The translations under genes and the position numbers were made by a program. Below, in pieces: positions 362-23,822 of a DNA stretch of 64,000 bases. The stretch covers positions 1 to 64,000 of the IMG/VR virus record IMGVR_UViG_3300031576_000006; one strand, given 5' to 3'. Every line of letters begins with the position of its first letter. Position 1 is the stretch's first letter. Source of the stretch: a virus. A model generated the notes under the pieces. The model worked only from the letters and a program-made list of their open reading frames with translations, searched no databases and was not told where the DNA came from.

Positions 362-373
362 TTAGGATTCTTA

Positions 374-1816
374 ATGGATGGTCAGCTTAAAAAGCCGCTC
401 AAATTATTACTATTGCTTAGGGCTTTAAAGAAAGCTAATGGCGCAGCTGTAGCCTCACCCGCAATGCCTCCCTCTGAACCTCCCGCTAATCCACCTACTC
501 AAGATACTGTGGATAATACAACTAACATTCGCTGGTTTGGCACTATTTCGCAAAAAAAGAAAAAAAAGAAACGCGATTGGCTCACTACATCTAATGAGCA
601 AAATAAAGAGCTTTACAAATCAGCCATTAAGCGGCATTTTGAAGATATGGGGTATCTTGAAAAAGGATTGCACGGTAATTGGGAAGCTGAAGGTTACAAG
701 ATCAGTCATATTCCAAGAGATAATGGAGTCATGGAAATCCATGCTCATGCGCCGGACGGCAAGCACGTAGGGTATGCAATGATCTACCCTCACGAGACTG
801 AGCCTCATGCACTCATGCCTATGGTAACTTCTATTCGCCCTGAACATCAACGTAAGGGACTTGCCACTGCTATGTATCGCCATGCTGAAAACGTATCTGG
901 AAAAATGGTTTTACCTTCTACAGATCAAAGCCCAGACGCACAAAAATTATGGAATCAACCCAAAAGACCTTCCGGTAAGTCTGAACTTGAAAAAGGTCTT
1001 CATGGTGATTGGCAAAAAGAAGGATATAGAATCTCTCATTCTTTTCCAGAAGATTACTGTAAGGATTGCGCAATTCATAGTGATACTGAAATGAGAGTAT
1101 CCGTTACAAAAGATGGCAGAGAAGTTGCCCATGCTCATATAGGTGGAGGACATGAATCACATGATTTTTTATGGCCAAGGGGTATTAATGTAGACAAAGC
1201 CCATAGGAGAAAAGGGATTGCCAGTGCAATGTATCAACATGCTGAGAATTATTACGGGAAACATATAAAGCCTAGTGATGCTCAATCAGAAGATGCTATA
1301 TATCTTTGGGCTCAACCTAAGCGTCCATTTGGAAAGAATGATTGGCAAAAATCTTATCAGCTTCACAAAGAAGAAGTAAAGCAGCCGGAAATTTTACATC
1401 ATTATAGCCGTCAGGCTGGTCTAAAATCAATTGACCCTCGGCAAATGGGTATGGGTACATCTGGTGATTTTAATAAACGATTTAATCCATCTCAGATTGA
1501 AGATTTTCCACATACGTCCTTTCACTACATTCAAAATCAACCGGAAGATGTAGTTCGTCACGGAGCAGTTTCTAAGTATACCCTCAGGTTAGATCCAGAT
1601 AAGCATAAGCTGTACGACCTTTCTCACGACAAGGAAGGGTTGGTTCGCCAAGCTATTGATGAGAATCAAGGTGCCTGGAACTATGAGAACATGCTCAACA
1701 GGATCAAAGGTGCTGGCCATTACGGCATTTGGTCTAGTGCATCACAAAATCCTATTATAGCTAATACTGTACAATTGTTTCATCAACATCCAATAGAATC
1801 AGAAGAGGTTGCATGA
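374..1816 (+). CDS. Putative internal virion polyprotein: GNAT - GNAT - ADP-ribosyltransferase-like domain
   Basis: Two acetyl-CoA motif A copies (HQRKGLATAMY, HRRKGIASAMY), each preceded by LEKGLHG.W..EGY.ISH. C-terminal LHHYS...LYDL...IKGAGHYG resembles ART-fold domains of phage polyvalent proteins. Confidence 0.65.
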   Translation: MDGQLKKPLKLLLLLRALKKANGAAVASPAMPPSEPPANPPTQDTVDNTTNIRWFGTISQKKKKKKRDWLTTSNEQNKELYKSAIKRHFEDMGYLEKGLHGNWEAEGYKISHIPRDNGVMEIHAHAPDGKHVGYAMIYPHETEPHALMPMVTSIRPEHQRKGLATAMYRHAENVSGKMVLPSTDQSPDAQKLWNQPKRPSGKSELEKGLHGDWQKEGYRISHSFPEDYCKDCAIHSDTEMRVSVTKDGREVAHAHIGGGHESHDFLWPRGINVDKAHRRKGIASAMYQHAENYYGKHIKPSDAQSEDAIYLWAQPKRPFGKNDWQKSYQLHKEEVKQPEILHHYSRQAGLKSIDPRQMGMGTSGDFNKRFNPSQIEDFPHTSFHYIQNQPEDVVRHGAVSKYTLRLDPDKHKLYDLSHDKEGLVRQAIDENQGAWNYENMLNRIKGAGHYGIWSSASQNPIIANTVQLFHQHPIESEEVA

Positions 1817-4743
1817 AGGACGTAATTGGCCAACCACATTTTATATTTTCCGTAGAAAATGCGGCACATCCCCCTAAGGTTGAGTCGCCTACACACGAAG
1901 AGGCTTTGGAATGGTTGAGAAGGCAAGGTGAAGATGCCATTAGTGCTACGGGATATTACGACCGGCCAGAAAGATCTATTATTGTTTGCAATCCTAAAAA
2001 CATAGAAGGCTTGAAACAGCTAGCTCAGGATACTGGTCAAGAATCGGTAATCAACTCTGACGGACACAAACACGAACTACATTTTATAAATGGCGAACAT
2101 CAAGGCAAGGTTGTCCACGGAATCGGATCTGAAGTTTTTCCTCAGATGCCGCAAGGTCCATTTACTTCTTATATTGATGAACATAACGATCCTATATATT
2201 TTCGTCATAATTTTGATTTAGAGTCTATGGAAAAAGCTGAAGGCTTGAAAAAGCGCAAACGAGATCCCGGTCGTAAAGAACCGGCCATGCATGGACATCA
2301 CACCATTCCAGTAAAAGAGAGTGGATTGCCCGGCTTGGAATGGCATCTTAGAAATCTTTGGGAAACCCAAGAAAGCCCCGGAGGCTGGAGATCAATTAAA
2401 GAGATCCCAAGAGAACAGCATATAAAAATTCATGCAGGAAGACGAAGGAAGAAATTAGCAGCCTCTGAAGAACTGGAAAAAGCTCAGGAACCCAACGATC
2501 AGATTAGGCAGGTCGCCGATCAATATACTAAGTCTAAGGGATTACAAATACAACACAATCTTATGCCCATTAAGGCTAATCCTGAAAAATCTATTAGAAT
2601 TGCGCAGGCCTATCATGAAATGCCGCATACCCCAAATGATCCTGCAGTGCAAAGTGCATATGGTCACTTGATCAACGAAACAATGGATCAGTTTCAGCAC
2701 ATCAAAAATGCTGGCCTCAAAATATCTAAGATTCAATCGGGCGCAGAGAATCCATACAAAACCTCTAAAGATCTGTTTCATGATATTAAAAACAATAATC
2801 ACATGTGGTTCTATCCTACCGAAAGCGGATTCGGTACTGAAAATAAAATCACCGATCATCCTATGCTTGCTCCAACAAATGAAACACATGAAGGTAGGCC
2901 GCTATTGGCGAACGATGTGTTTCGAATTGTTCACGACTATTTCGGCCATGCCAAAGAGGGACACGGATTCGGGCCTAACGGTGAGGAGAATGCATGGCAG
3001 AATCATATGCAGATGTATTCTCCTGAAGCTCAAAAAGCTATGACTGCTGAAACAAGAGGTCAGAATAGTTGGGTTAATTTTGGACCACATGCAATACACA
3101 ATCGGGCAAATCCTTCACAGACTATTTATGCCGATCAAAAGGCCGGGTTACTGCCTGAATGGGCACTGTCTAAATCCGAAGATTTGAATAAAGGACCCCT
3201 TCCTTCTCTTGGTTACGACATAGAACGAGCAAAAAAAGAAAGTTTGCCAGACATAGCTCATAATGATGATTATATACACAAGAAATCAGTTAGATTGCCC
3301 AACGGCCTTGAATATCGAAAATACCAACATAAATTTGCACTACCTCATCAAGAAAAATTTGTACATACACTATTCGATCCTTCTGACAAACATGAACCGT
3401 TAGCGTATATGGAAACTTCTCACGATGAAGATGATTCTGGTTTCCATCCACATGCTGTAGATTGGTCTGAAGTGCAACCTCTGCATAGAGGAAAGGGATT
3501 AGGTCGCCAGCTTTATTTGGCTACTTTAGTTCACAGTACCAATAAGCTCACCTCAGATGCCCATATTTCCCCTGAAGCACATAGGATGTGGGAATCGTTA
3601 AAATCATATCCTGGGCTTCGTGCAAAAATACGTCCATATAAACATAAGGCCGATCCTTTTTATCGTCCTCCAATGAAGGATGATAAATTTTCTGAACGCC
3701 ATCACGTATATGTACGAGATCTCAACAAGCTCGATCACGCTAAAATGTTTCCTCCGGTGGATCTTTTCAAACTGGCCGCCTCCGAAAATGAAGAATCTGA
3801 ATTATTAAAGGCAATTGATGAAAAATCCTGGAATAGAATTCTTAAAACTCATAATAAGTCGGTTCGTGAGGACGTTGTTGATTCGGGCGGCCATATACGA
3901 TACTTCAATAATACGCACCCTGAATATCAATCACAGGTGCTCGATAGTAATAAAAAAATGAAATCTGATTCTTCTAGGGGTATGGGTTCGTTCCCTAAAA
4001 TGATTCACACACTCCCATCTCAAGAAGGTGAAATAAAATTTATGGCTAAGCCGTACCATGCTCCAATGGAAAGATGGGCTAAAAGTTGGACTAAACATCC
4101 CATTAAGGGATGGGCTACCTTAACTACTAAGAAGCTATTTGATGCGGCACAAATTCCTGAACTAGCTGAAGACATTTCGGCGCACGTCCATAAAGGTGTT
4201 CCGATTATTGTTAGTAGGTTTCATCCGGAAGCAAAAGAATCTTACAATACGGGTCCGAATAAATATACGCAGCCATTTACCCCTCCAGACGTTGCTAAAA
4301 TTTTAGTTATGGATTTTTTGACCAACAATCAAGATCGACATTCAGGTAATATTATGAGAATAAATGAGCACGAGCCGTTGGCAATTGACCATGAACGAAA
4401 TTTTCAATATTTTCACCGTAAGCCTGGATTTGACCCTAATATATCTCCATATCACGCCTGGTACAATTCAGGGTTTGCTGAACACAATAAACTGCTTCCT
4501 AATCAAATTGATACGTTCTCGGACCATTTAGTTGACTGGTGGGGCAAAGCACGAGATAATGTAAAGAAGGAGATGTATCATAATTTGAAATTTATTAAAG
4601 ATCCAAGCATTAATCGGCATATAGCGGGTAACTTTTATGAGAGGTGGAGATGGATAAATGACAGGATGGAATCAGATCCGTCTTTGATGTTTGACAAAAA
4701 TGTTCCGGGGTCGTATCCTTTGGGATATAGGAAAGATAAGTAA
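1813..4743 (+). CDS. Putative internal virion polyprotein: SAM-lyase-like - HDxxGH domain - GNAT - HipA/PI3-4K-like kinase
   Basis: Motifs GYYDRPERSII...LAQDTGQESVI; NDVFRIVHDYFGH...GEENAW; HRGKGLGRQLY; MDFLTNNQDRHSGN...IDHER. Linkers MEKA, LEKA, LSKS/LNKG, LLKA. Confidence 0.65.
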   Translation: MKDVIGQPHFIFSVENAAHPPKVESPTHEEALEWLRRQGEDAISATGYYDRPERSIIVCNPKNIEGLKQLAQDTGQESVINSDGHKHELHFINGEHQGKVVHGIGSEVFPQMPQGPFTSYIDEHNDPIYFRHNFDLESMEKAEGLKKRKRDPGRKEPAMHGHHTIPVKESGLPGLEWHLRNLWETQESPGGWRSIKEIPREQHIKIHAGRRRKKLAASEELEKAQEPNDQIRQVADQYTKSKGLQIQHNLMPIKANPEKSIRIAQAYHEMPHTPNDPAVQSAYGHLINETMDQFQHIKNAGLKISKIQSGAENPYKTSKDLFHDIKNNNHMWFYPTESGFGTENKITDHPMLAPTNETHEGRPLLANDVFRIVHDYFGHAKEGHGFGPNGEENAWQNHMQMYSPEAQKAMTAETRGQNSWVNFGPHAIHNRANPSQTIYADQKAGLLPEWALSKSEDLNKGPLPSLGYDIERAKKESLPDIAHNDDYIHKKSVRLPNGLEYRKYQHKFALPHQEKFVHTLFDPSDKHEPLAYMETSHDEDDSGFHPHAVDWSEVQPLHRGKGLGRQLYLATLVHSTNKLTSDAHISPEAHRMWESLKSYPGLRAKIRPYKHKADPFYRPPMKDDKFSERHHVYVRDLNKLDHAKMFPPVDLFKLAASENEESELLKAIDEKSWNRILKTHNKSVREDVVDSGGHIRYFNNTHPEYQSQVLDSNKKMKSDSSRGMGSFPKMIHTLPSQEGEIKFMAKPYHAPMERWAKSWTKHPIKGWATLTTKKLFDAAQIPELAEDISAHVHKGVPIIVSRFHPEAKESYNTGPNKYTQPFTPPDVAKILVMDFLTNNQDRHSGNIMRINEHEPLAIDHERNFQYFHRKPGFDPNISPYHAWYNSGFAEHNKLLPNQIDTFSDHLVDWWGKARDNVKKEMYHNLKFIKDPSINRHIAGNFYERWRWINDRMESDPSLMFDKNVPGSYPLGYRKDK

Positions 4744-5123
4744 TGATTACGATGATTGTCCATAACTTACATACAGGATCTTCAAAGCGATATGACTTTG
4801 AAAAGCTTTATGATTTCGATAAGGTGGTCTCCGATTACGGACCTGTGATCAATTCTATTGTAGGCGATGTCAAAAATTTGCGTACAGCTGTTGATCAAGT
4901 TGCTGAATATTTATCGAACCACCATTTATCTGCTGAAGTAGTAGACCCTGAAGATGCAGAGGAAATTTATGATCCAAATGTTGAAACTTTTACAGAATCA
5001 GATAAGAAGCCAGAGAAGGCCCTTGATCTTAAGGATGTTCTTGAATCTTATAATGAAGTAGAACATATTGATGTGCCGGACATGCACGTACTAGATTCCT
5101 CTACTCACCGATGGAATAAATAA
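4743..5123 (+). CDS. Acidic hypothetical protein
   Basis: 126-aa ORF coupled to the upstream gene by a TAATG overlap. Confidence 0.6.
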   Translation: MITMIVHNLHTGSSKRYDFEKLYDFDKVVSDYGPVINSIVGDVKNLRTAVDQVAEYLSNHHLSAEVVDPEDAEEIYDPNVETFTESDKKPEKALDLKDVLESYNEVEHIDVPDMHVLDSSTHRWNK

Positions 5124-5129
5124 CTTAAA

Positions 5130-7685
5130 ATGACCAACGATAAAAGAGAAAAACTTATTTTTGATCTCATCAATCAAGGCTCCTGGGATAAGGCCATTGA
5201 ACACGCTAAGGCTATGCCTAACAATTGGGATGTTTGGCAGCGTATGCCTTCTGCCGTTCCATTAGGAATGCCCGATCAAGCAATCAATAAGGTTTTAGAT
5301 CATTTAGGTCCGGAAGGACTGAAGCATTCGGGATTTTTATTTGAGATTGCTTCTAATCTGGGTATAAAACATGACACTGCAACAATTCGCCGCCTTGCTA
5401 ATTTATCAAATGACATTGATTCGTATCACGAAACTCAAAAATTTATCGAACACCCTGATTATGCAAAATCTCCAGAAGAAGAAGGTTTAGCCTATGCAAA
5501 TAATTTATGGAGTGATTATGAGCTTGCAGTAGATCCCGGCCATTTTGCTGCTGTTAAATCTATATACACAAGTAAGCCTGAAATTATTAAACATAGAGGG
5601 TTGGAAGGAAAATCAACGGATTGGAATAAAGCTATTCCACATCTTAGAGATTATGCCGCTAAAGTACAAGAAAAAATTATCAATGATGATAATGTTCGCA
5701 AACGCAATTACAACGGAGAACCATACATAAAGGTACACCGTGGAGTCGGCGGTCACTATTCTAAAATGTTGCGCGATGCAGTTAAATACAATCCTAAAAC
5801 TGGCGAATATGATTCAAAAAATATTACCGTACCCGCGATAGCTTTTTCTTCGTGGACCACCGAGCCGAACATAGCAAAGAATTTTGCCGAGCACCGCAGC
5901 GCGGATCTTTTGCCAGGGCATGGATTGATAATGTCTAAGTGGATGCCGGTTAAAGACATACTTCATTCTGGGTATCATAGAATGCTGCCAGAATTTCCTG
6001 GCAATCACCCCAATGAACAGGAACTTATTTTTGGACACCCAACCGGTCGAATGAAACTTAATCCCAATGAATTTCAATTTCAATATAAAAATAATAATTA
6101 TGATCCAAAGAAAGAGTATGGGTTTACGTCTAAAGGTTATGTGCCTGTAGAACATGAATTTAATTTTGATAAGGGCATTAAGCGAGAAAAAATTTCCAAG
6201 GGTATAAGGGATAAAGCACTACAGCTTGGCATTGCCACTGCCATGTTGGGCATGCCACAACACATGATAGATCAAGGTAAAGATCAATTTATTGAACCAC
6301 AGCAACAAACAGAACAAAAAATAAATCCATTGCCTGGATTAAAATATATTGAGATGGTCGAGAGTTCTGGCAATAAGAACACTAGACATCAACTTGTCAC
6401 CTCTGGAGTTAATGCTGGTACTCGTGCAATAGGCCGATACGGCATTATGCCATTACAGGCCATAGAGACTGTTTCGAAAGACCAGCAGCTTGCTCAACAG
6501 TATCCTGAATTTTTAAATTATCATCACGTCAGAGATCAGGATGCTATTTCTCAAAAAATACTTGGTAGTCGAGATGTAGAAAATTCTATAGCTAACTCAC
6601 ACTGGAAGCGCCTATACGATCGCTTTGATGGAGATGAAAGTAGGATGGCTCATGCTTGGAATAAAGGAATTACTGGCACCTTAAATACAGATCTTGATAG
6701 GCTTATAGATGACGACTATGTTAAAAAATATCACAGATATAAAAAAATGATGAATCTAGAACGCCGACCGGCTGAATTGAAAAAAAATGAATCCAAGCTG
6801 CCTCCTGAGATAACAACCATAAAACAATTTACGTCATTCGACTCCACTATTCCTGATAATCAACTTAAGGAAAAAGAAATCAATCAACTTATTGAAAACA
6901 GAGCATTTCATTCTGTTCCTGGCATGGGCAACTTTACTCACAGCAGTTTTGTGCTTGGTACCAATCACGATAATGCATGGCTTATCAAGGTGGAAGCTGG
7001 AAACCGTCCCGGCATTATATCAGCTAAGTCCGGCTTGCAATCTGTTAAAGAATCTGCATTCTACATAGTCGCAAGGGATATTTTTGGATTAGGTGAGCTA
7101 TTGCCCGAAGTTCTTCTGGGTGAGGTTATTTATGAAAACGATCGGAAACCGGCTGCTGCAATAAAAATGTTACCTAGTAGGTATAAACTTGCAGTGGAAC
7201 AAGAACGGGAGCGACCGGGCTCTATGCCAGCCATACTTAGTAAATATTTGAAATCCGGGCTACTTCATAGGGTTGCATTTATGCTTTATGCTTTGGGAGA
7301 TGGTGATTCTCATGGTCGTAATATAATGACGGATGGTCATTTTGTAAAATTTATAGATCATGGTTCCGGTTTTGCTAATGCAGACTTTAATCCCGCTACG
7401 GATCATAACATTTTTATGCCCTATATATTACGTGCTGGTGTTGTTAAGGAAAATATGTCGCCAGAGGAGAAATTGGATAAAATGCCGAAAATTGAGAATA
7501 TGGAAGTTAGAAAGAACCTAAGTGCTTGGATTTTATCGATTAATTCCCGTAGTTTAGCTCAAAAACTTAATAGTAAAGAGATAGACCCCCTTCCAACTGA
7601 GGGTCGTTTGAAAAAAATACAATCAATGGTAGCAGAGGGCATGGAGCCCGATCAGGCCATTAATCAAGTTTGGGTAAGGGGTTAG
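5130..7685 (+). CDS. Putative internal virion polyprotein: R-S-E type ADP-ribosyltransferase - lytic transglycosylase - HipA/PI3-4K-like kinase
   Basis: ART triad VHRG / FSSWTT / EQELI; SLT motifs MVESSGN...AIGRYGIMP...AWNKG; kinase motifs LIKVE...DGDSHGRN...FIDHG. Linkers ISKG, LKKN. Confidence 0.7.
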   Translation: MTNDKREKLIFDLINQGSWDKAIEHAKAMPNNWDVWQRMPSAVPLGMPDQAINKVLDHLGPEGLKHSGFLFEIASNLGIKHDTATIRRLANLSNDIDSYHETQKFIEHPDYAKSPEEEGLAYANNLWSDYELAVDPGHFAAVKSIYTSKPEIIKHRGLEGKSTDWNKAIPHLRDYAAKVQEKIINDDNVRKRNYNGEPYIKVHRGVGGHYSKMLRDAVKYNPKTGEYDSKNITVPAIAFSSWTTEPNIAKNFAEHRSADLLPGHGLIMSKWMPVKDILHSGYHRMLPEFPGNHPNEQELIFGHPTGRMKLNPNEFQFQYKNNNYDPKKEYGFTSKGYVPVEHEFNFDKGIKREKISKGIRDKALQLGIATAMLGMPQHMIDQGKDQFIEPQQQTEQKINPLPGLKYIEMVESSGNKNTRHQLVTSGVNAGTRAIGRYGIMPLQAIETVSKDQQLAQQYPEFLNYHHVRDQDAISQKILGSRDVENSIANSHWKRLYDRFDGDESRMAHAWNKGITGTLNTDLDRLIDDDYVKKYHRYKKMMNLERRPAELKKNESKLPPEITTIKQFTSFDSTIPDNQLKEKEINQLIENRAFHSVPGMGNFTHSSFVLGTNHDNAWLIKVEAGNRPGIISAKSGLQSVKESAFYIVARDIFGLGELLPEVLLGEVIYENDRKPAAAIKMLPSRYKLAVEQERERPGSMPAILSKYLKSGLLHRVAFMLYALGDGDSHGRNIMTDGHFVKFIDHGSGFANADFNPATDHNIFMPYILRAGVVKENMSPEEKLDKMPKIENMEVRKNLSAWILSINSRSLAQKLNSKEIDPLPTEGRLKKIQSMVAEGMEPDQAINQVWVRG
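7550..7574 (+). promoter_or_regulatory. Candidate late promoter motif (inside the 3' end of the 851-aa gene)
   Basis: TAGTTT-AGCTC-AAAAA-CTTAAT-AGT matches the 9-copy fixed-spacing consensus. Confidence 0.55.
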
Positions 7686-7883
7686 ATGGAAAAAATATGC
7701 AATAATTGCCAACTCCCTAAAGTTCTTAATTATAGTTACACTGGTTGGCACATAGATCACAAAAAAGCTCTTGCAAATTTTGATCTTACCGATCGTGAAC
7801 AATTTTTACAAGCTATGCATTATACCAATTTACAACCTCTGTGGGCAAAAGACAATATTAGTAAATTAAATAGGATTATATAA
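7686..7883 (+). pseudogene. Internally deleted HNH homing endonuclease relic
   Basis: N-terminal KICNNC is joined directly to GWHIDH...HYTNLQPLWA.DN. Same family as 23823..24569 but ~180 aa shorter. Confidence 0.7.
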
Positions 7884-8426
7884 ATGACAAAAAAAGATGT
7901 TTTAAGTTTGGAAAAAGTAGGCCAGTCTCAAGATGGCAGTGAGATATATCACGTACAGTCAAAAGGCGGGTTACATAAAATGCTCAAGAAGCGAAAGAAG
8001 GGTGACTTCTTTGTTCTTGGAGAAGGCAACCATCGTGCAGTTGCAAGAGTTCTTGCTAACAGAATGGAAAAAAATATACTGTGGCACGAGTCGTTGTTCA
8101 AATCAGAAGACGCCGAATATTTGAAAAAGGCAGAACGTGATAATATTATTCTTCCAGAATCAACTCCGGAAAATCATATTGCACAGGCCGTATGGCATTC
8201 GTACATATATAACAACGGCGATTCATTGAATCGTGTCTACCATAGCATGCAAGCCATAGCGCACTATGAAGCAGCGGGTTTAGACAACAAGCGTGCTCTT
8301 GAGGCAGTCAACACCACACTACAAAAATTGAATAAAAGTTATACTATGGATAAACCTTTCGAAGATACGCTTTTAAAAGTTGCGTGGGAAAAGAAAAACG
8401 GTAAGCCGTTTCCTTCTGGTGAATAA
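7884..8426 (+). CDS. Hypothetical head-associated protein
   Basis: 180 aa with LFKSE, LKKAE, LNKS motifs; lies in the late cluster. Confidence 0.5.
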   Translation: MTKKDVLSLEKVGQSQDGSEIYHVQSKGGLHKMLKKRKKGDFFVLGEGNHRAVARVLANRMEKNILWHESLFKSEDAEYLKKAERDNIILPESTPENHIAQAVWHSYIYNNGDSLNRVYHSMQAIAHYEAAGLDNKRALEAVNTTLQKLNKSYTMDKPFEDTLLKVAWEKKNGKPFPSGE

Positions 8427-9323: not shown

Positions 9324-9929
9324 ATGTATTTGATTTATATGGCTGTTAATATATTGAATGGTAAAAAATACATTGGCAAAAATAAAGGCACCGTATTTTA
9401 CCGAAAACATGAACACAAACGGGAAGCCTTGAAGAGAAACAGCCAGACTCATTTTCACAATGCAATTCGCAAATACGGTTTCGAATCTTTCAAATGGTAT
9501 CGGTTGGAGCTTTGTCTAAATAACACAGATGCGGTTAAAAGAGAGAGATTTTACATTAATATGCATGATAGCGTAAATAGTGGGTATAATTTATCATTTG
9601 GCGGTGACGGCCCTGAAGGTCACAAACAATCAGAAAAATCTCAACAAAAAAAGCGAAATTCTAATCGCGGAAATTCTAATTCATCCAGGGCAGTAATCAA
9701 TAGTTTGGGTGAAATATTTGAGTCCGTTAGTATGGCCGAGAAACAGTATAAAAATTCCAAAATTAGAGAGGTCTGCTTAGAAAAAAGAAATTCGGCTGCC
9801 GGGCTATCTTGGAAATTTTACACACTTGGAATTGAGAAACCCGAACATCCGCAGGTAAGCAGACGAACGCCCAAAAAATTACTTGAAACTTACCAACATG
9901 CTATACTTAAGCAATTTGGACAAATGTGA
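9324..9929 (+). mobile_element. Free-standing GIY-YIG homing endonuclease
   Basis: LIY...NGKKYIG, R..EH, AIRKYG, E..YI...S...GYN; C-terminal NUMOD-like segment. Confidence 0.85.
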
Positions 9930-9953
9930 AAAGATTAAAGGTAGTAAAATCAA

Positions 9954-9978
9954 TAAGTTGAGCTAAGAACTTAATATT
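9954..9978 (+). promoter_or_regulatory. Candidate late promoter motif
   Basis: TAAGTT-GAGCT-AAGAA-CTTAAT-ATT upstream of 10007. Confidence 0.65.
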
Positions 9979-10006
9979 ACTGAAGAATCTAAAAAAAGAG
10001 GACTAT

Positions 10007-10447: not shown

Positions 10448-10455
10448 GGTGCGGT

Positions 10456-11469
10456 ATGTACAGCAACGAGAAATTGGTTAGATCCATTTTAGGTGATCGG
10501 GTTTATGAGGCTTTAAATAAGTCTATCGTAAAGCTTAACACCAAAAGCGTTGTAGATATTTCCGAACTTCACGCGGCTTTAAAAATTGCCCCCAAGTCTG
10601 TAGTTGCTTTTTTAATGAAAGAAACTGAGGATATGAAAAAAGACGGGGCAAAAGAGATTAAATTGCCTTGGGACGGTAACGCTACAATGCTTTTAAATAA
10701 GCTCGATACAGATACATACAAAGGCCATATCTCAAAAGATGGCCGTATTGTCCACGAATTCGATCTATGTTCCATTCCACAATTAGCTGCCCACATCCTT
10801 TCTTTTTTCGAACTATATGATGAAGTTCCTGAACAAGGCGAACCGAAGGAAGAATCTAAACAAGAGCATGAAGATATAGAAAAAATCAAACATCAACTTC
10901 AAACCCTAGAATCTAAACTTAATGCCTTAATTATGCTTGCGGCTGGTCCCAGCCAAGAGCCCGTACAAAAAAGCCAGAAAGACAAACTTACAAAAGCCAT
11001 TACGGCTTTAAAAAAGGCTGGATTGGCACCCACTATGCCTAAGCCGCCAAAGCCTGGAGTTCATTCTGGAAGTCAACAGGGGATTACACAAGCTGGATTT
11101 CATAGTCCCAAAACTACGGAATCTGATTCATCCGTAGGCCGTCAAAAGACAAAAGAAAAAATGAATCCACATTTGAAAACTGGCGATAAGCTGGCTACTC
11201 AAAGTGGATTGCCTCAACCAGCTAAACAACCCAAGCAACCTAAAATGTCCATGGCGTTAAAGTCTGAAAGTATGAGTAGTAAGTGCCTAGATTGCGGAGA
11301 GCCTGATTTTATCAATGGTAAATTTGCTAGATGTGCTTGTTTCAAGGCTATGAGTATGCCCGATATTAAAAAATCTGAAAATGGTTTAACATTTTATTTC
11401 GGAAGTGATTGGGATAGCGACAATAAAATAGCATTATGGCATTCACTTAGGAAGGTAAGACGTGGATAA
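10456..11469 (+). CDS. Hypothetical head-associated protein with C-terminal Cys cluster
   Basis: Many hydrophobic-x-K-[AS] motifs (LNKS, VQKS, LTKA, LKKA, IKKS); CLDC...CAC. Confidence 0.55.
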   Translation: MYSNEKLVRSILGDRVYEALNKSIVKLNTKSVVDISELHAALKIAPKSVVAFLMKETEDMKKDGAKEIKLPWDGNATMLLNKLDTDTYKGHISKDGRIVHEFDLCSIPQLAAHILSFFELYDEVPEQGEPKEESKQEHEDIEKIKHQLQTLESKLNALIMLAAGPSQEPVQKSQKDKLTKAITALKKAGLAPTMPKPPKPGVHSGSQQGITQAGFHSPKTTESDSSVGRQKTKEKMNPHLKTGDKLATQSGLPQPAKQPKQPKMSMALKSESMSSKCLDCGEPDFINGKFARCACFKAMSMPDIKKSENGLTFYFGSDWDSDNKIALWHSLRKVRRG

Positions 11470-12397
11470 AATTATTGCCGCTATAAGATTCAAAGAACTC
11501 GATACGTCTGTTGCTTCTGATATTGACATCCTTACAAACTATAATAAACAAAAGAGTGAAGCAAGGCATCATATTGTTTCTATGATCTTATCCGTTGGTG
11601 GTCGAGAAATTGGCGATCATGAATCTGATCTGATTGTTGAAATACCATTAGATTCAGCAAATATTCTGCGTGACGCCCACGCCCGATTGGAACATGAATT
11701 GGAAATTTCTACAACTATTGGCGTAGGGGACGATCTTAAATATGCCAAAATGGCATTAGATTGGGCTGTTGAAAACCGTCCCGGTACTATTAAAGTAATG
11801 GAGCCAGTAATCGAAAAAGAAGCTAAGAAGCTTGATGACAAAGATGACTTTGACCATCTTATGCCTGAAGATGTTGCTATAGATCAAGAAGGTCGCCCCG
11901 AACAACATATAAATAAGGCCGAGGGTGATACTGACGATTGGGCCAATGACAAGGAATCTATTTCTGATGAAATGAGAGCTAAAATTGTTAATATCGTTAA
12001 GATGTTGCAGGGCAATAAGGAACGTCTCAATAGCCTGCGGGAAACTAGTCCAGAAGTATATGCAGGCGTCGTTGGGTTAGTTAATTCTATTTCTGCTATG
12101 GCCCAGAGTGCTAAAGTGGAAGACGCTAAGGCCCATAGCAAGATGATCACTAAAGTATCTAAATACCTTGATCAATCTGAAGAAAAGAATTTGGATGATC
12201 AGGCTGCTTCGGTTATGGAAATGCTAATCGAAGCGATGAAAGAAAAAGAAGAAGAGCATAAGGCAGAAATGCAAACTATGCATCAGGGCGCAGAGCGTAG
12301 ATTTAAAGTTCGCCGTAAGCTTGCTATTGATCATGCCAATAAGACCGGCTCTGATCCGAAGTTTTTACTTAATCTAAATAGAACTATGAGACGTTAA
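11462..12397 (+). CDS. Protein with degenerate GGDEF/mCpol-like N-domain and helical module
   Basis: SVGG...LIVEIP...TTIGVGDDLKYAKMAL pattern; catalytic acidic motif not intact. Confidence 0.4.
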   Translation: MDKIIAAIRFKELDTSVASDIDILTNYNKQKSEARHHIVSMILSVGGREIGDHESDLIVEIPLDSANILRDAHARLEHELEISTTIGVGDDLKYAKMALDWAVENRPGTIKVMEPVIEKEAKKLDDKDDFDHLMPEDVAIDQEGRPEQHINKAEGDTDDWANDKESISDEMRAKIVNIVKMLQGNKERLNSLRETSPEVYAGVVGLVNSISAMAQSAKVEDAKAHSKMITKVSKYLDQSEEKNLDDQAASVMEMLIEAMKEKEEEHKAEMQTMHQGAERRFKVRRKLAIDHANKTGSDPKFLLNLNRTMRR

Positions 12398-12398
12398 G

Positions 12399-15300
12399 AT
12401 GCCAGAATCTTTGAAACACAGAATTTTAAATCCTACCGGCGAGCACAGTGATTCGTTTTATTTCAGCAGCTATGATAGCAGTAATGAGCACAAAGCCCAA
12501 CTGGAAGATTTGAAAAGAACCATTACCCCTGTTGAATTTATCAATCTCATTGCTGGTAAATATGGACACAGTTCTGTGTATTCGGATGAAATTGCCAAAG
12601 TATTTGAAGGTCATCCGCATAATAATCCAAAAAATGTTGATATCGCTATGAATCAATTATCATCTGATGATGCCTCTTCATCTGCAAGACAGAACCAACA
12701 AGAAAAAATGGTCGCTCTTTTACGCCATTTTCAAGTTTCTCCGAAAATGATAGAAAAAACCATAAGTATGCCTGAAAAATATGGAGGTATGGAGATTATT
12801 AAATCTGGCCGCCTCCCAATTAATAGCACTGCCAAAGTATTGAGCAATCAAAAAGCTCTTACGCCAGATCACATAAAAAAATTATTACAACACGAAAGTC
12901 AATTTCGAATCGAAGCTGGATTACTTCACCACCCTGCGGCCAATTTAGAAATACAAAAAGAAATAGCCCAAACTCCAAATGCCGAATTAGACGCAAATGC
13001 TGCTGAGGTATTAATAAACAATCACGCACTGCACGGAAATTTAGGTCCAAATCCTGATCAAATTTTATCACACCTAATAAGAAACAATCCACATCTCGGC
13101 ACCAATACCTTCGATAAAATTGCAGACCGAATGGACTTCGGTGCAATGGAAAAGTTACATAATGAACTTCTTGGCATTGATGGCGGTAAGCCAAATGATG
13201 GAGAAGATGCCATAAGTCCAGAGACAAATTGGAACAATTGGGAAAACGGTGATAAATTTAGTCATCGACATGAAGACGATTTAGCCGCATCAAGACATCT
13301 CACCCCAACCCAAGCTGAACACATAATGCGTCATGGGGATTTTGACTCTAAATGGAACCTCTTCAATAATAAAAGACTGGGAAGCAAATATGCCGATCAA
13401 ATGTATGAAAAATGGCTAAACGATGACTCTGATCATGGCTATGATTTAGATGCCTTTAAAGAAAAAATTAAAGAAGAGCATCCATTTGAATACGATGACT
13501 GGTACGAAGAGGCGCAACAGGCCGCCGAAGAAGATTATCCTATATCTACATTTATAAGAGATCATTACAACGATGAAGACTTGATGGGCGAACCACAAGA
13601 GGATTGGATTAAAAAACAACTTGAAAAAAATCACGATTGGACCCATAAGCTTGATGACAAACAGTGGCGTAAAAGAATGGCAAACAATGATACCAAAAAT
13701 CAAGATTGGCTTAAAATGCTTGATATGGTTACACCTGGGCTTCTCGGCCACAAAATGGGGAACATAACAAAAAGAGATGTTGAAAGTGCCGGAATTAGTT
13801 TAAATCAATTTCCTTATGATTTCACAGATCACCCAGATGATTCAATATCTTCTGATGATTTAATGGAAGAAATCGAAAAACAACATCCAAAAGAAGTAGA
13901 TTTTGCTGAAGATAACGACATAGAATCTCATCCAGAATATGATGGGCGGCACAAAGAAGAAGAAAATTCCTGGGATGAAGAAGTCAAACGCATATCGGAA
14001 AGAGATATGCCTGATAGTGTTTATGATTCTTACAGTGAATCCATGAGTGAGGATATCCATCAAAGGGCTGATAGGCTTTATAGAGATAAAATGGATAATG
14101 CTCATGAAGATGAAGAATTTTTACCAGATCATCTATCTGCTATAGCAGAAATCAAACGTAAACAGGCGGAAGTCAAAGAAGCGGCTGCATTTAAAGAAGC
14201 TCAAGCTAAAGAGGGTGCCGTTAAAGAAAAACTCGATCAATACATCCCAAACAGACCTAAAGAACATGCATATGGAGAAGGTCAGCATCATATGGAGCTT
14301 GCTAAACAATACTCTGATGCGAATAAGGGATCTATTGATATAGGCCACTTAAATAAAATGTATCCTAATCTTACTGAAAAATGGAAAAAGATTTTTGGCG
14401 GCAAAGGTAAAATATCGTCTGACGAACTTCAGCAAAAAATTGATGCTTTGCCAAAATCAAAGTACAATTTGAGCTATGGCCATTGGGGTCCACAGAATAT
14501 GCAGAACCTTAATGGTCAAGACGAGATGGTCGTTAGGTTAGATCACAGCCCAGAGACCTTAGCTGCTTTAAAAAAAGATCCTGAAGCTCATGATGTTTTT
14601 CAAAAAGTAAATGATGCGTCTCAAAGATCGGGTCACCCCACTAATTATAATACTATTGGTTGGGCTCGTGTAGACTTTACAAATCCTAAACATCCTATGG
14701 TTGATGAACTACAGTCTGACTTCTCATCTGCTGCAAGAGATTATCTTGCTGAACATGGCGAGACTGGTCAAGAAAAGGCTAAGGCTCTGGATAAAATCAT
14801 GCACATTCAAAAGAATTGGCGTGAAATTTTACTTAATGCTGTGACAAAGATCGCCGGAGCCAATGGTGCTGAAAAGCTTTCTACACATAGTCCCGAATCA
14901 AAAGCAGCCCATACAGGTGCAGGCAAGGTCCATTCTGTTTACAAAGATTCTTACGAAAAAATTCCCCGTCAATTAGGATTCAAATCCGCCCCAATGGAAA
15001 CCCTTCCTCTAAACGAAGAGGGTAAGGGTACATTCCTTATGTCTCGGTCTGGCACCCCAACTGAGGATTTATTATCACAACATAAAGAAGGGATGAATAT
15101 GCATGCTAGACTGTGGGATAGACACAAGGATTTGGCCGAAAACCCCGTAGAAATTGATAATGAACCCGTTCATATAGAGAACAGATTATCAAGAATTGCA
15201 GTCCATAAAAATCTTATAGAACATCATGCTTTTCTATATAAGCAGCATCAACAAAGACTATCTCAACTTGATCCTTCTCATGAATTGCGTACCGCAAAGA

Positions 15301-15944
15301 CACCTGGAATGTATGTAGGCACATACAAAGATAATAATCCTGTACCGGGTTTCGATTATATGGGACATGCGATCGATCGCGCTATTAATCATGAAGCTCC
15401 CGTTTTTAGTTTCGATAGTGCCTTAAAACAAGAACCTGCAGTTACTGTAGGGCACACTGGTCATACATTACCACTGGCCGTAAATGCTTTTAAAAAACAT
15501 ATCATGGTTCTTGATCTGCTTCAAAAAGCCCAGATGAAGGATGACGATAAGGTTGCTATTGCTCAAGCTCTTATGAATATTAAATCACAACAAGAAAAAA
15601 TCGAACAATTGAAGGCTCAAAACCCAGAAGCCTACGATACTATTTCTCAATTAACAGAAGTCCTCGTAGATCTTTTTAAGGAATTGAACAACGAGCCTAT
15701 TGAAGCGGTCCAACATCAACTCGAAGCCGAATCAGCTATGGCACCACAAGAACAAGCTACGGCACAAGCCCAAGGACAGGCAGGATTTAAACCTCCACCT
15801 GAAGAAAAACCTATTACCCATGGGCCGAAAACCTTACCTATAGGTGCTGAAAGAACTTATTCTTCTAAAGAAGCCAGGCAAAAAAGCCCAAGTGGTGAAT
15901 GGATATCTGTTCAGGGCGGCAATAAAACGCAGGGTTGGCAGTAA
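12399..15944 (+). CDS. Large polyvalent/internal virion protein (1181 aa)
   Basis: Helical repeat N-region, very acidic middle, GH...IGWARVD...VDELQSD domain seen in phage polyvalent proteins, and a C-terminal module shared with 11462..12397. Confidence 0.55.
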   Translation: MPESLKHRILNPTGEHSDSFYFSSYDSSNEHKAQLEDLKRTITPVEFINLIAGKYGHSSVYSDEIAKVFEGHPHNNPKNVDIAMNQLSSDDASSSARQNQQEKMVALLRHFQVSPKMIEKTISMPEKYGGMEIIKSGRLPINSTAKVLSNQKALTPDHIKKLLQHESQFRIEAGLLHHPAANLEIQKEIAQTPNAELDANAAEVLINNHALHGNLGPNPDQILSHLIRNNPHLGTNTFDKIADRMDFGAMEKLHNELLGIDGGKPNDGEDAISPETNWNNWENGDKFSHRHEDDLAASRHLTPTQAEHIMRHGDFDSKWNLFNNKRLGSKYADQMYEKWLNDDSDHGYDLDAFKEKIKEEHPFEYDDWYEEAQQAAEEDYPISTFIRDHYNDEDLMGEPQEDWIKKQLEKNHDWTHKLDDKQWRKRMANNDTKNQDWLKMLDMVTPGLLGHKMGNITKRDVESAGISLNQFPYDFTDHPDDSISSDDLMEEIEKQHPKEVDFAEDNDIESHPEYDGRHKEEENSWDEEVKRISERDMPDSVYDSYSESMSEDIHQRADRLYRDKMDNAHEDEEFLPDHLSAIAEIKRKQAEVKEAAAFKEAQAKEGAVKEKLDQYIPNRPKEHAYGEGQHHMELAKQYSDANKGSIDIGHLNKMYPNLTEKWKKIFGGKGKISSDELQQKIDALPKSKYNLSYGHWGPQNMQNLNGQDEMVVRLDHSPETLAALKKDPEAHDVFQKVNDASQRSGHPTNYNTIGWARVDFTNPKHPMVDELQSDFSSAARDYLAEHGETGQEKAKALDKIMHIQKNWREILLNAVTKIAGANGAEKLSTHSPESKAAHTGAGKVHSVYKDSYEKIPRQLGFKSAPMETLPLNEEGKGTFLMSRSGTPTEDLLSQHKEGMNMHARLWDRHKDLAENPVEIDNEPVHIENRLSRIAVHKNLIEHHAFLYKQHQQRLSQLDPSHELRTAKTPGMYVGTYKDNNPVPGFDYMGHAIDRAINHEAPVFSFDSALKQEPAVTVGHTGHTLPLAVNAFKKHIMVLDLLQKAQMKDDDKVAIAQALMNIKSQQEKIEQLKAQNPEAYDTISQLTEVLVDLFKELNNEPIEAVQHQLEAESAMAPQEQATAQAQGQAGFKPPPEEKPITHGPKTLPIGAERTYSSKEARQKSPSGEWISVQGGNKTQGWQ

Positions 15945-16201
15945 TGTTGACAATAGAAGAAATCAAAAAAAGGATTAATGTGGTGCATCGGGGGCGTGTG
16001 GCGCTCGACATATCTACTTATGTAAAAACTACCATCAAGGCTCGTTTTATAGATTCTGAATACGGTGAATGGTGGGCCAAACCCAATGATATTTTTAATG
16101 GCCACGGGCATCCTAAAAAAGCTATTTATAAAAGAAACGATAAGCATCCTGGATCTGAACTTTGGGATAAAAATAAATTCAAACATCTTGGAATCATATA
16201 A
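15944..16201 (+). pseudogene. Homing-endonuclease N-terminal repeat relic
   Basis: STYV....KARFID.EYGEWWAKP.....GHGHP is a DNA-binding repeat typical of phage HEGs; no nuclease domain. ATG at 15944 overlaps the upstream stop. Confidence 0.5.
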
Positions 16202-17928: not shown

Positions 17929-17935
17929 ATTTCAA

Positions 17936-17960
17936 TAGGTTAAGTCAAAAACTTAATAAT
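17936..17960 (+). promoter_or_regulatory. Candidate late promoter motif
   Basis: TAGGTT-AAGTC-AAAAA-CTTAAT-AAT. Confidence 0.7.
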
Positions 17961-17969
17961 GATGTCACT

Positions 17970-18368
17970 ATGTCAAATGATGCCAATTTATACAAAAAAG
18001 TTAGTCAGTTAAAAGATTTACGTTTGGCCATAAAAGAAGTGAAAAAAGTTTCACAACCAGAACCTGTAAAGATTACAAAAGCCCAAGAGCCCATGGAATC
18101 TCAAAAAGAATACCCACTCAAATATTTAGGCCGCAAAAAGATGCTTGGCGGGATCTTATCTCACCTCATTGGCTCCGGCCAGGATGGCGATAATAACTAC
18201 GAGATGAGCGTTAATTTGGAGAAATATAATAAAGGCATGCCATGTGTAATTCTTTCACACATATCTCCTAAGGGTGAAGTTCTTGATCACTCTGATGAAC
18301 ATTATGACGATATGAAAAATGCCATCAAGGCTATTGTAAATCATAAAATGAAAAAGGCTTGGAAATAA
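17970..18368 (+). CDS. Hypothetical head-associated protein (start revised to ATG 17970)
   Basis: The called start (17904) overlaps the upstream gene and the promoter motif. ITKA and MKKA motifs present. Confidence 0.55.
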   Translation: MSNDANLYKKVSQLKDLRLAIKEVKKVSQPEPVKITKAQEPMESQKEYPLKYLGRKKMLGGILSHLIGSGQDGDNNYEMSVNLEKYNKGMPCVILSHISPKGEVLDHSDEHYDDMKNAIKAIVNHKMKKAWK

Positions 18369-19231
18369 TGGCCGATTACGTAAAGGTCCCAGATTCGAAA
18401 AGTAACAAGGAAGATGCCGAGAGGCACTTACGTTCCCTTGTCGATTCTATGAAAAAAAGAACTGCCGATGCCTCACCTGAAAAAGGCATACATCCAACTG
18501 CAAAATTACAAATAGACACTCCAGGTATGAGCATGGCCGGTATCAGTGTTCGGTCTGCACAAGTTAATCGTGAGCAGGGCACCAGCGATTGGCAGAATAC
18601 TAATGAAGCAAAAGATCGTCACAAAAAAGTTATTCGTGAGCTTATATCTATGCCAAAACCTAAACTTACCAAATCAGAAATCGAACAGTTCGATGGCCAA
18701 TTAAAAAAGGCTGGATATTGGTCAAAAAGAATACAGCAAATACGCACACAGAAAGAAACAGACCGTCAACGGGCACTTAAAGAACATTTTGGTGCTCAAA
18801 ACAAACCTGTGCCTCAACATTTAGCTCAACCTCAAAAAGAGGGTAGACTGGATTATAAAAAGATCATTAGGGAATACAAAACTAAAAATAATATTCCTCA
18901 GAAACCAGAAACTCCCGCCGTAGCAGCACCTGAATCTCAACCGGCTGGATATGGTAAATTACACGATCCTAGATTAAGCGGGTTAGCGCCAAAAGTTAAA
19001 AAGGCTGAGCCAAAAGTTAGGGTAGATCCTGTCGATATCTCTGATCCGATAGTTCAAAACCGTACTACAGTTAGTTCTCCTTTGAAGATCAGTGGACCGG
19101 CATCAATGAGTCCTGTACGCGATGAAGGTCTAAAGAAGTGCGGTCGTGTCCTGCGCCATATGATTAATAGTTTACAAAAAATCGATCCAAAAACAAAGTT
19201 GCCGGGCAATTTGATTAACAAGGCTAAGTAA
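18359..19231 (+). CDS. Basic low-complexity internal head protein
   Basis: Lys/Pro-rich with LTKS, LKKA, VKKA, INKA; shares a module with 19231..20292. Confidence 0.55.
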   Translation: MEIMADYVKVPDSKSNKEDAERHLRSLVDSMKKRTADASPEKGIHPTAKLQIDTPGMSMAGISVRSAQVNREQGTSDWQNTNEAKDRHKKVIRELISMPKPKLTKSEIEQFDGQLKKAGYWSKRIQQIRTQKETDRQRALKEHFGAQNKPVPQHLAQPQKEGRLDYKKIIREYKTKNNIPQKPETPAVAAPESQPAGYGKLHDPRLSGLAPKVKKAEPKVRVDPVDISDPIVQNRTTVSSPLKISGPASMSPVRDEGLKKCGRVLRHMINSLQKIDPKTKLPGNLINKAK

Positions 19232-20292
19232 TGAAAAAGAACATGTCTGAAGTTTTAAATCGTATGTGTAAGTCGTTGAGCGCCTCAGAAGGTAAATCTG
19301 TAAAGCAGCATCCGTGGAGAAAAGTTCCAGCAGTTTTTGGCGGTGATCGGGGTGCCAGAACAAGAGCAACAATAGAAGCACAAAAGAAAAAATACGGAAA
19401 AGATGTTGTTCGTGATTCATTTAAAGATAGGCTCGGCGTCGAAAAAGTAGAACCTCTTTCTAAGCCTTACGCCTCTGAAGCTCAACGCGGCAAATTCCAT
19501 GCTATGGAAAATCGTGGCGAAATCAGTCATGCAACTGTAGCTGAATGGGATAAAGAATCAAAGGGCAAAAAATTGCCTGAACGTGTAGCAAAAACCGAAG
19601 GATTGAAGAAATGGAACTTTTCTCATATAAGAGATCAACTTAGAATAGAAGCTAAAAATAAAGAAAAGGGTATCAATAAGCCATTGGCTGGCAAGCCCGG
19701 TCAATCTCATATGGGGTTAGATGTTAGAGGTGCAGCAGTACAAGAAGCGAGGCGTAAAGAAAATCCCATTTTTGATAAATTATCAAGGTTAACAGGTCAA
19801 CCTTCTCATGGGAAAAATATACAAGAAGCTAAGGTAGACGCCAGAAAACAGGCCCACACGGTTTTGAATGAAATTCGAACTATGTCCAGGCCAAAACTCA
19901 CAAGATCTGAATTGGAAAAATTTGATCAGGATCTAAATAAAACCTGGGGATTAAGAAAAGACATCAATTTTAAACTGCAGGCACCGCAAAAACCCAAAGA
20001 TCCAGTTATGAATCCAGCTACCCCACCTAAGCCTGCTAGCGATACTTACAAACAAAAAGCAACCGCTTTTGTTCAGAAACCGCCAGTGAAAAAAAATATA
20101 CCAACACGATCTGATTTAGAGAAGTTTGATCAGGATCTAAATAAATCTTGGGGTAAGGCCGAAGGCGCTCCTGCTCCTGCTTCGAAACCAGCTATGCCAA
20201 AACGGCCTGCGATGCCAAAAATGAAATCAATAAAATCTCCTGTGCCTAAAAAAGCGCCAGATATGCAAATGAATGAAGATAAAAATAAGTAA
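19231..20292 (+). CDS. Basic low-complexity internal head protein with internal repeat
   Basis: TRS(E/D)LEKFDQDLNK(T/S)WG twice; PYASEAQR.KFHA...GEIS...V.EWD...KLPERV mini-domain. Confidence 0.55.
   Translation: MKKNMSEVLNRMCKSLSASEGKSVKQHPWRKVPAVFGGDRGARTRATIEAQKKKYGKDVVRDSFKDRLGVEKVEPLSKPYASEAQRGKFHAMENRGEISHATVAEWDKESKGKKLPERVAKTEGLKKWNFSHIRDQLRIEAKNKEKGINKPLAGKPGQSHMGLDVRGAAVQEARRKENPIFDKLSRLTGQPSHGKNIQEAKVDARKQAHTVLNEIRTMSRPKLTRSELEKFDQDLNKTWGLRKDINFKLQAPQKPKDPVMNPATPPKPASDTYKQKATAFVQKPPVKKNIPTRSDLEKFDQDLNKSWGKAEGAPAPASKPAMPKRPAMPKMKSIKSPVPKKAPDMQMNEDKNK
19921..20145 (+). repeat. 21-bp exact direct repeat TTTGATCAGGATCTAAATAAA (19921..19941, 20125..20145)
   Basis: Read directly from the sequence. 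Confidence 0.85.
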
Positions 20293-23821: not shown

Positions 23822-23822
23822 T

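Follow-up and report, generated by a model that had tools for sequence, protein, structure and literature searches.

Head-protease processing of ejected phage proteins is already known, and so are polyvalent proteins and their predicted delivery. In phage T4 a short N-terminal targeting peptide loads enzymes into the prohead and the prohead protease gp21 removes this peptide; the proteases of phiKZ-type phages recognize the motif A/S/G-x-E. The Alt and internal proteins of T4 are packaged enzymes, including an ADP-ribosyltransferase (ART), which are injected with the DNA (Iyer et al. 2017, PMC5512222). In phages of the phiKZ/SPN3US type many packaged and ejected head proteins are cut by the prohead protease (gp175/gp245), some of them at several sites, and the protease also cuts itself (PMC10052503). 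Polyvalent proteins of phages and conjugative elements carry 2-15 disparate conflict domains per polypeptide in mosaic arrangement, among them ART, GNAT, kinase, lysozyme/transglycosylase, NUDIX-like and other domains, and the prediction is that they are packaged and travel with the DNA; their release was proposed to depend mainly on embedded zincin-like metallopeptidases, and assemblin-like peptidases, fused to some of them, were reported at C-termini alone (Iyer, Burroughs, Anand, de Souza and Aravind 2017, PMC5512222). They are widespread in phages and plasmids, and the delivery and release of their domains are mostly conjecture. Here we analyzed a stretch of 64,000 bases (the window), which is bases 1-64000 of IMG/VR record IMGVR_UViG_3300031576_000006, a record of 116,231 bases and about 76% completeness. 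Three open reading frames (ORFs) of the window, named here by their start positions as ORFs 374, 1813 and 5130, encode multi-enzyme proteins directly after the end of a prohead protease gene. We consider, with a probability of about 0.6, that they are effector polyproteins of an Mx1-like myovirus which are packaged in the head, cut by the head protease and injected. What is new in comparison with the systems above is the Lys-specific site at the joints between modules, the fact that this site is anchored to a mapped cleavage and goes with one protease lineage, and N-terminal fusions of protease and cargo.

Because the major capsid protein (MCP) of the window matches phrog_752 (E 1e-34), the MCP of Myxococcus phage Mx1 (52% identity) and those of ten IMG/VR contigs (64-90% identity), and because a tail sheath gene is present (21014-23821), we assign the source to an uncultured Mx1-like myovirus. 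A near-identity DNA search against cultured phages gave no match, and a 162.7-kb contig carries proteins identical to those of the window. The N-terminus of the protease, the portal and the terminase are not in the present record. The publication on Mx1 is a genome announcement without proteomics. Four IMG/VR relatives reached through the MCP (G001-G004) were used for comparison; an IMG/VR pattern search with ORF 1813 as a single protein gave no match.

The motif that we discuss is a hydrophobic residue, any residue and Lys, followed by a small residue (Ser, Ala or Gly, sometimes Thr or Asn) and often then by Glu. The predicted cut is after the Lys and is marked below by a slash. Three head genes of the window carry it:

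2-361, plus strand: C-terminus (119 amino acids) of the prohead protease, truncated by the contig start; full-length homologues have 308-336 amino acids
107-109, plus strand: predicted self-cleavage site L-R-K36/A of the protease, followed by a copy of the MCP N-terminal arm
29096-30031, plus strand: scaffolding protein with eight motif matches
30043-31425, plus strand: MCP, with a predicted cut L-K-K10/A at 30070-30072 that would take off a propeptide of 10 amino acids

The specificity is anchored in the MCP. In the GenBank record of Listeria phage A511 (Herelleviridae) the mature capsid protein Cps (mat_peptide) starts at codon 24, that is A-L-K/S-F-T-T-G-Y with the cut between K23 and S24. 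This bond aligns with L-K-K/A-L-E-A-G-Y in the window and L-N-K/A-L-E-A-G-Y in phage SP-10, and on this alignment the MCP site is homologous to the annotated Lys/Ser maturation bond of A511. L-x-K followed by Ala or Thr is kept in the MCPs of 10 of 10 IMG/VR relatives and of Mx1, one of which reads R-K/T. Cleavage after Glu in the E-K contexts, like in T4 or phiKZ, was rejected, since the Glu is inconstant and the homologous mapped bond of A511 is Lys/Ser. In the scaffold the eight matches compare with 2.25 expected, a count reached by no shuffle, and about five site positions are kept in most of eight aligned relatives (seven relatives and Mx1).

The protease was examined with its full-length homologues, as the window has only the C-terminal 119 amino acids. 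The homologues match phrog_1028, head maturation protease, at 1e-8 to 1e-10, and also phrog 38466 and phrog 3270. With hhalign the family profile aligned to A511 gp84 with a probability of 95.3% and E of 2e-8, around the serine motif G-F-S-[VI]-E-G. By these profile matches the protease belongs to the family of the Herelleviridae A511 gp84 prohead proteases, which is of Ser/His type. A search of PDB sequences with the hidden Markov model of the protease found nothing. The copy of the MCP arm after hydrophobic-x-K was found in the proteases of A511, SP-10, Mx1 and the window phage. The initial annotation had put a probable prohead protease directly before the multi-enzyme ORFs, had placed the motif at the MCP N-terminus and at least six times in the scaffold, and had cited the Lys/Ser bond of A511; all of this was borne out by the PHROG and hhalign matches, the counts and the GenBank feature.

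The cargo genes follow the protease and are arranged as below.

374-1816, plus strand: cargo polyprotein 1 (ORF 374), with leader, low-complexity spacer, two GNAT domains and ART-like C-terminal domain
431-433, plus strand: end of the amphipathic leader, K20/A
662-664, plus strand: site K97/G
665-994, plus strand: GNAT 1 (Pfam), ending at K207/G
995-1351, plus strand: GNAT 2 (Pfam), ending at K326/S
1352-1813, plus strand: ART-like C-terminal domain
1813-4743, plus strand: cargo polyprotein 2 (ORF 1813), with five modules, D1 to D5, from the structure model and VIA-align
1813-2235, plus strand: D1, predicted S-adenosylmethionine (SAM) lyase, ending at K141/A
2236-2481, plus strand: D2, small module, ending at K223/A
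2482-3174, plus strand: D3, HD..GH domain, ending at K454/S, with a second site K460/G at 3190-3192
3193-3810, plus strand: D4, GNAT, ending at K666/A
3811-4740, plus strand: D5, kinase like phosphatidylinositol 4-kinase (PI4K)
5130-7685, plus strand: cargo polyprotein 3 (ORF 5130), with helical domain and ART, transglycosylase and kinase
5130-6200, plus strand: helical domain and predicted R-S-ExE ART, ending at K357/G
6201-6785, plus strand: predicted lytic transglycosylase with initial hydrophobic helix, ending at K552/N
6786-7682, plus strand: PI4K-like kinase

The domains were identified from Pfam, from AlphaFold2 (AF2) models compared by VIA-align, and from invariant residues. In ORF 374 Pfam called the two GNAT stretches; for the C-terminal domain ART-PolyVal and PARP came out as leads only, below confirmation. 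The model of ORF 1813 had a mean predicted local distance difference test (pLDDT) score of 78.6. Its D1 (residues 1-135) aligned with PDB 7ock chain L ('MAT in complex with SAMH', 152 residues), which we take to be the T3 SAMase, with Z 10.8 and root-mean-square deviation (rmsd) 3.7 over 120 residues, and the Pfam family S-AdoMet_lyase (PF23780) was found below threshold in three homologues; by its modelled fold D1 is a T3-type SAM lyase. Residues 490-648 aligned with GNATs at Z 7-8, and residues 692-972 with PI4K-IIalpha at Z 13.3. D2 and D3 gave no VIA-align rows, though those parts were barely probed.

The model of ORF 5130 had a mean pLDDT of 73.7. Foldseek with the whole model returned weak kinase rows only, and VIA-align separated three domains. 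Residues 117-348 gave middling scores with ARTs (C3bot2 Z 7.1, CPILE-a 6.9, Certhrax 6.7, VIP2 6.4), and the ART residues R204, S241, E296 and E298 are invariant across 15 sequences, so that motif and modelled fold both identify an R-S-ExE (C3/Alt-like) ART. Residues 398-544 aligned with MltC (Z 9.7, rmsd 2.5, 112 residues) and Slt70 (Z 8.2), and E411 and S412 are invariant in the homologues; the modelled fold and the Glu-Ser pair identify a family-1 lytic transglycosylase (Slt/MltC). Residues 566-819 aligned with PI4K-II at Z 9.7, with D726, H728, N731 and D743 of the motifs D-x-H-x-x-N and D-H/F-G invariant. PF00454 (PI3/PI4-kinase) fell just under the Pfam cut-off in the window and over it in Mx1, and the kinases of ORFs 1813 and 5130 are, on model and motifs, PI3/PI4-kinase-like. 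Searches of PDB sequences with ORF 1813 and with ORF 5130 found nothing useful. The initial annotation had the ORFs and coordinates right, and its domain calls for the three proteins are confirmed, that of the ART in ORF 374 at the level of a lead.

These proteins resemble polyvalent proteins in two respects: ORFs 374, 1813 and 5130 have 3-5 modules each of unrelated conflict-type domains, and the modules are recombined into mosaic architectures in G001-G004. Signature PolyVal Pfam domains (ART-PolyVal, MPTase-PolyVal, LPDs) were not found at threshold in the window proteins, and ART-PolyVal was found in Mx1.

The motif, hydrophobic-x-K followed by A, S, G, T or N, stands in every linker between domain-called modules of the three ORFs. 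All sites listed in the initial annotation, in these ORFs and at K1043 of a further ORF (12399, described below), are present. When six boundaries were defined independently, by homology breakpoints and by linkers of the models, none of 20,000 composition-preserving shuffles put a site in all six. The plain counts are enriched modestly, with 9 matches against 3.95 expected in ORF 1813 and 6 against 2.28 in ORF 374. Among 131 listed representatives that contain D3, the motif occurred per 100 amino acids at 2.35 and 1.71 in the two 25-residue flanks of D3, at 0.41 in its core and at 0.75 elsewhere, and the residues after the Lys were Ser in 78% (P1') and Glu in 53% (P2').

The proposed mechanism is as follows. 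The late head/neck operon codes for host-takeover and anti-defence enzymes in the form of multi-module proteins, made up of SAM lyase, GNATs, ARTs, PI4K/HipA-like kinases and lytic transglycosylase; relatives add NUDIX and others. The polyproteins would enter the prohead by a short amphipathic N-terminal leader that ends in a site, or, in Mx1 and some relatives, by fusion of the cargo to the protease. The hydrophobic-x-Lys-small sequence of the linkers would be the recognition site of the prohead protease, which after activation would trim the MCP, degrade the scaffold, cut itself and cut the cargo at the linkers. The freed enzymes would remain in the head and leave with the DNA at ejection. 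Packaging, cleavage, ejection and the targets of the enzymes are inferred. A leader ending in a site was found in ORF 374 and three homologues (in a fourth homologue the first site is about 48 residues in), and also in a G004 polyprotein, the scaffold and the MCP.

The conservation of the sites was compared with that of their surroundings. K357 is never replaced across 15 homologues of ORF 5130, at least 90% of which retain K552, and both sites lie inside gap-rich linkers; the residue P3 is always hydrophobic, and P1' is G, S, T or N at K357 and N, S, A or H at K552. In one homologue the second site has moved by a few residues yet is retained. The low-confidence linkers of the model are residues 323-341, 355-396 and 543-555. 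The six remaining loose matches in ORF 5130 are not conserved, and the boundary between the helical domain and the ART has no conserved site. In ORF 1813, K454/K460 and K666 are in low-confidence linkers of the model. Genome-wide, loose sites were conserved with G001-G004 in 13 of 43 cases in the head/cargo block, compared with 3 of 37 outside it (p = 0.023). Eight sites combine conservation with variable flanks; seven of them fall in the head/cargo block, which adds ORFs 7884 and 11462 as predicted substrates.

Internal sites of this kind bear on whether the cargo is packaged and just trimmed at its ends, with loss of leader or tail pieces as for the capsid-targeting sequences of T4, with most internal sites inaccessible and the large proteins ejected intact. 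Proteins of great size can be ejected by phages, and T4 Alt and the internal proteins lose no more than a short leader; in the window, K141 and K223 lie within predicted helices, and ORF 12399 has a single, near-terminal site. We nevertheless regard end-trimming as unlikely, because the Lys is invariant or nearly so in variable, low-confidence internal linkers (K357, K552, K454/K460, K666), because many relatives commonly carry doubled sites, for example K-S-E-D-L-x-K-[AGS], from one module to the next, and because in the tandem GNAT repeat of ORF 374 the site is duplicated along with the domain. The same background bears on the initial annotation, which had proposed a modular payload system of polyproteins loaded into the prohead and cut into single domains small enough to eject, which would act before any phage gene is expressed. 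This proposal is supported in part. Conservation, shuffling, protease lineage and fusions speak for its core, in which head-protease sites join the effector modules and loading into the prohead is probable; the need for cutting into pieces small enough to eject found no support.

Cutting of packaged polyproteins at their joints also agrees with the way modules move among relatives. D1, D4 and D5 are in one protein of G001; G002 has D1 with D4, and a second protein with NUDIX, D2 and the C-terminal domain of ORF 374; G003 has D1 by itself; and in G004 one protein has the C-terminal domain of ORF 374 ahead of D1 and further parts, while another has D3 and D4 with further parts. These exchanges of modules of ORFs 374 and 1813 fall exactly at the sites, where the initial annotation had suggested looking for domain swaps. 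The relocation of the C-terminal domain of ORF 374 between proteins has its breakpoints at residues 311-341.

The motif also goes with the protease lineage. D3 (residues 224-454 of ORF 1813) matched 5,321 cluster representatives, 2,752 of them at E<1e-30, and occurs on at least 562 IMG/VR contigs with 47-67% identity, in proteins of 212-3703 amino acids. In 150 listed representatives the local alignments mostly begin near residue 224 and end near residue 453. The domain is strongly conserved and has no Pfam family or named Atlas cluster, and its invariant residues include H-D-x-x-G-H, F-G-x-x-G-E-E and Q-N-S-x-V-N; we flag it as a very abundant viral domain without assigned function. In IMG/VR phages of other types, D3 is mostly not flanked by such a site. 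The comparison covered 8 genomes with this protease and 6 without it. Of three further D3-bearing records with the protease, G006 and G011 have the motif beside D3 and G010 has no strict match there; six D3-bearing genomes of 97-100% completeness without the protease have no motif there, save one loose hit.

This co-occurrence, together with conservation, counts against a reading of the motif as a non-proteolytic linker element, such as a docking peptide or a joint of flexible or helical kind, which recombination has spread together with the modules and which resembles the MCP site by coincidence. The linkers are rich in Lys, Glu, Ser and Ala, the enrichment by count is modest, and a peptide K-L-A-A-S-E stands before some sites without obvious protease logic, all of which would suit such an element. 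It is distinctly unlikely, since both the Lys and the small residue at P1' are kept amid varying neighbours (even in the homologue where the site has shifted), the motif is the same as the mapped homologous site of A511, it accompanies the protease lineage, and the codons vary between copies, which leaves no DNA-level recombination signal.

The head protease, as the proposed releasing enzyme, is further connected with the cargo by gene fusion. The protease ORF has 1239 amino acids in Mx1, 890 in G010, 868 in G006 and 574 in G011, versus about 310 elsewhere. The content of the extension was read for Mx1 and G006. The Mx1 coding sequence annotated as 'putative prohead protease' contains the protease, the copy of the MCP arm, several sites and cargo including a kinase-like C-terminus, and the extension in G006 is GNAT-like cargo. 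Mx1 also has a polyprotein of 1479 amino acids with GNAT, ART-PolyVal (61 bits), NUDIX and transglycosylase domains and sites between most of them. The polyprotein block of the window is syntenic with that of Mx1, upstream of the neck and sheath genes. That the polyproteins are not head proteins, and are late cytoplasmic enzymes or tail/neck-associated proteins with any processing outside the prohead or by another peptidase, is very unlikely: there is no MuF fusion, a transglycosylase suits a tail-tip role and polyproteins of both G004 and G006 include an HExxH motif, yet the genes lie between the protease and the neck/tail genes in synteny with Mx1, the protease ORFs of Mx1 and G006 are fused to cargo and those of G010 and G011 are similarly long, and Pfam calls no peptidase in the window polyproteins.

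Several points weigh against release of packaged modules by the head protease. The catalytic N-terminal half of the protease is missing from the present record. ORFs 1813 and 5130 have no N-terminal leader, which leaves their loading route unexplained. K141 and K223 are in or at the end of predicted helices and not in clearly disordered linkers. The protease-bearing G010 is without the strict motif beside D3. The loose motif is common, with 193 matches genome-wide versus about 170 expected, and by count alone neither ORF 5130 nor ORF 12399 is significantly enriched. The enrichment in linkers that the initial annotation had suggested as a check is seen in the coincidence with boundaries and in the flanks of D3 over its core, and in plain counts it is modest, without significance for ORF 5130.

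Compared with T4, ORF 374 and its homologues have a similar amphipathic leader that ends in a protease site. The difference is that T4 cuts after Glu (L/I-x-E) and strips the leader from single-function proteins, whereas the predicted cut in the window phage is after Lys and the sites recur between the modules of multi-enzyme proteins. The phiKZ/SPN3US-type phages differ in motif and lineage, and descriptions of their substrates do not speak of unrelated enzymes strung together in shuffled order, with a site at every joint. In contrast to described polyvalent proteins, the window proteins have no Pfam-called peptidase, the protease is separate or fused N-terminally, and the site motif punctuates the linkers. 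The Herelleviridae phages A511 and SP-10 share the homologous protease, the MCP arm, the aligned position of the cut after Lys (a predicted cut in the window phage), the arm copy in the protease and a Lys-Ser-rich scaffold, but no effector polyproteins are beside the head genes in the A511 and SP-10 stretches examined, and the propeptide has 10 amino acids in the window phage versus 23 in A511.

A broader reading, which we put forward tentatively and at somewhat less than even odds, is that across the large Mx1-like clade (about 110-170 kb, mostly uncultured) the head protease took over the release of polyvalent-protein modules and the Lys-Ser/Ala site became a universal joint. Loading, release and injection would then follow for any module that has flanking sites or is a fusion partner of the protease. 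If true, it would account for the processing of polyvalent proteins without embedded peptidase and for module swaps exactly at the joints. Sites for the head protease in the linkers would give a sequence-defined answer to the question of release, with a specificity anchored to a mapped cleavage in a cultured relative, and a rule by which the cargo of virions and the limits of mature effectors could be predicted from the sequences of this clade. The predictions can be tested in cultured Mx1 on Myxococcus xanthus, and they point to a natural modular system that loads foreign enzymes into capsids.

Further candidate substrates and neighbouring genes lie between and downstream of the polyproteins.

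4743-5123, plus strand: small acidic ORF of 126 amino acids, start-stop coupled to ORF 1813, with no site and a partial homologue in G001
7884-8426, plus strand: protein of 180 amino acids, predicted substrate with L-F-K73/S at 8100-8102, syntenic in Mx1
10456-12397, plus strand: proteins of 337 and 311 amino acids, candidate internal head proteins from the genome-wide orthologue test
12399-15944, plus strand: ORF 12399, conserved protein of 1181 amino acids with a single site L-Q-K1043/A at 15525-15527
18359-20292, plus strand: two Lys/Pro-rich paralogues with repeated peptides of about 20 amino acids, each closing with L-x-K and then A, T or S

The K73 site of ORF 7884 is conserved in 3 of 3 orthologues with variable flanks. 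Three sites in the 337-amino-acid protein are conserved, and so is I-N-K152/A (11915-11917) in the 311-amino-acid protein. The site of ORF 12399 is about 140 amino acids from the C-terminus; L1041 and K1043 are invariant in 20 homologues, P1' is mostly Ala or Ser, and the piece C-terminal to the site aligns with a separate Mx1 protein. The initial annotation had called ORF 12399 a polyvalent protein, which we do not follow: the 20 homologues of about 1100 amino acids are colinear and show no shuffling, no Pfam domain was found in it, and it has one site. A PDB sequence search with ORF 12399 gave nothing useful. In the paralogues at 18359-20292 the repeat reads S-E-L-E-K-F-D-Q-D-L-N-K, followed by Ser or Thr and then W-G. 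Their homologues in relatives are parts of larger, variable proteins of 353-1229 amino acids, and in Mx1 the protein in the same place includes an embedded SAM-lyase-like domain.

The peptide K-L-A-A-S-E occurs in this subgroup of phages 2-21 residues upstream of several module-end sites, at 2452-2469 and 3769-3786 of the window and in loci L020, L023, L025 and L027 of relatives, and was not seen in the first 41 kb of Mx1. The codons differ between the copies, therefore selection acts on the peptide. For the same reason the linker as a hotspot of recombination at the DNA level was rejected.

Directly after K357, the transglycosylase module of ORF 5130 opens with a conserved hydrophobic helix rich in Ala, Gly, Met and Leu (residues 358-377, window 6201-6260). 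The helix is reminiscent of a signal-anchor-release segment and could direct the enzyme, once freed, to membrane or periplasm. Where the cargo block begins, a joining of the protease to ORF 374 by stop read-through was considered, as both are in the same frame, and was rejected because a TAA and a ribosome-binding site lie between them, with two stops in G001. The junction (window 359-376; compare L020 16012-16029) resembles gene fission or fusion and not read-through.

In some other D3-bearing representatives (P0117, P0132, P0144, P0154, P0155, P0160 and similar), R-E-K-[MFY]-A-D-G-G was found just after D3, and it could be a linker signal of another kind. In polyproteins of G004 (L023 4319-7516) and G006 (L133), a module with H-E-x-x-H follows a stretch S-x-N-V-R-E-Q-R; it has no Pfam call and may be a zincin-like peptidase.

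The order of the head genes varies among these phages. In G002-G004 protease, scaffold and MCP are adjacent in this order, and in Mx1 the protease is set apart from the scaffold-MCP pair by three small genes. In the window phage and G001 the protease and polyproteins are about 28 kb from the scaffold-MCP pair, separated from it by the sheath, the tube and minus-strand genes. The structural operon of the window is also broken up by homing-endonuclease-like genes at 9324-9929, 15935-16201, 20614-21021 and 23571-24569. This set consists of two GIY-YIG genes, one short HNH-like fragment and one ORF with H-x-D-H...N-L-Q-P, which overlaps the end of the sheath gene.

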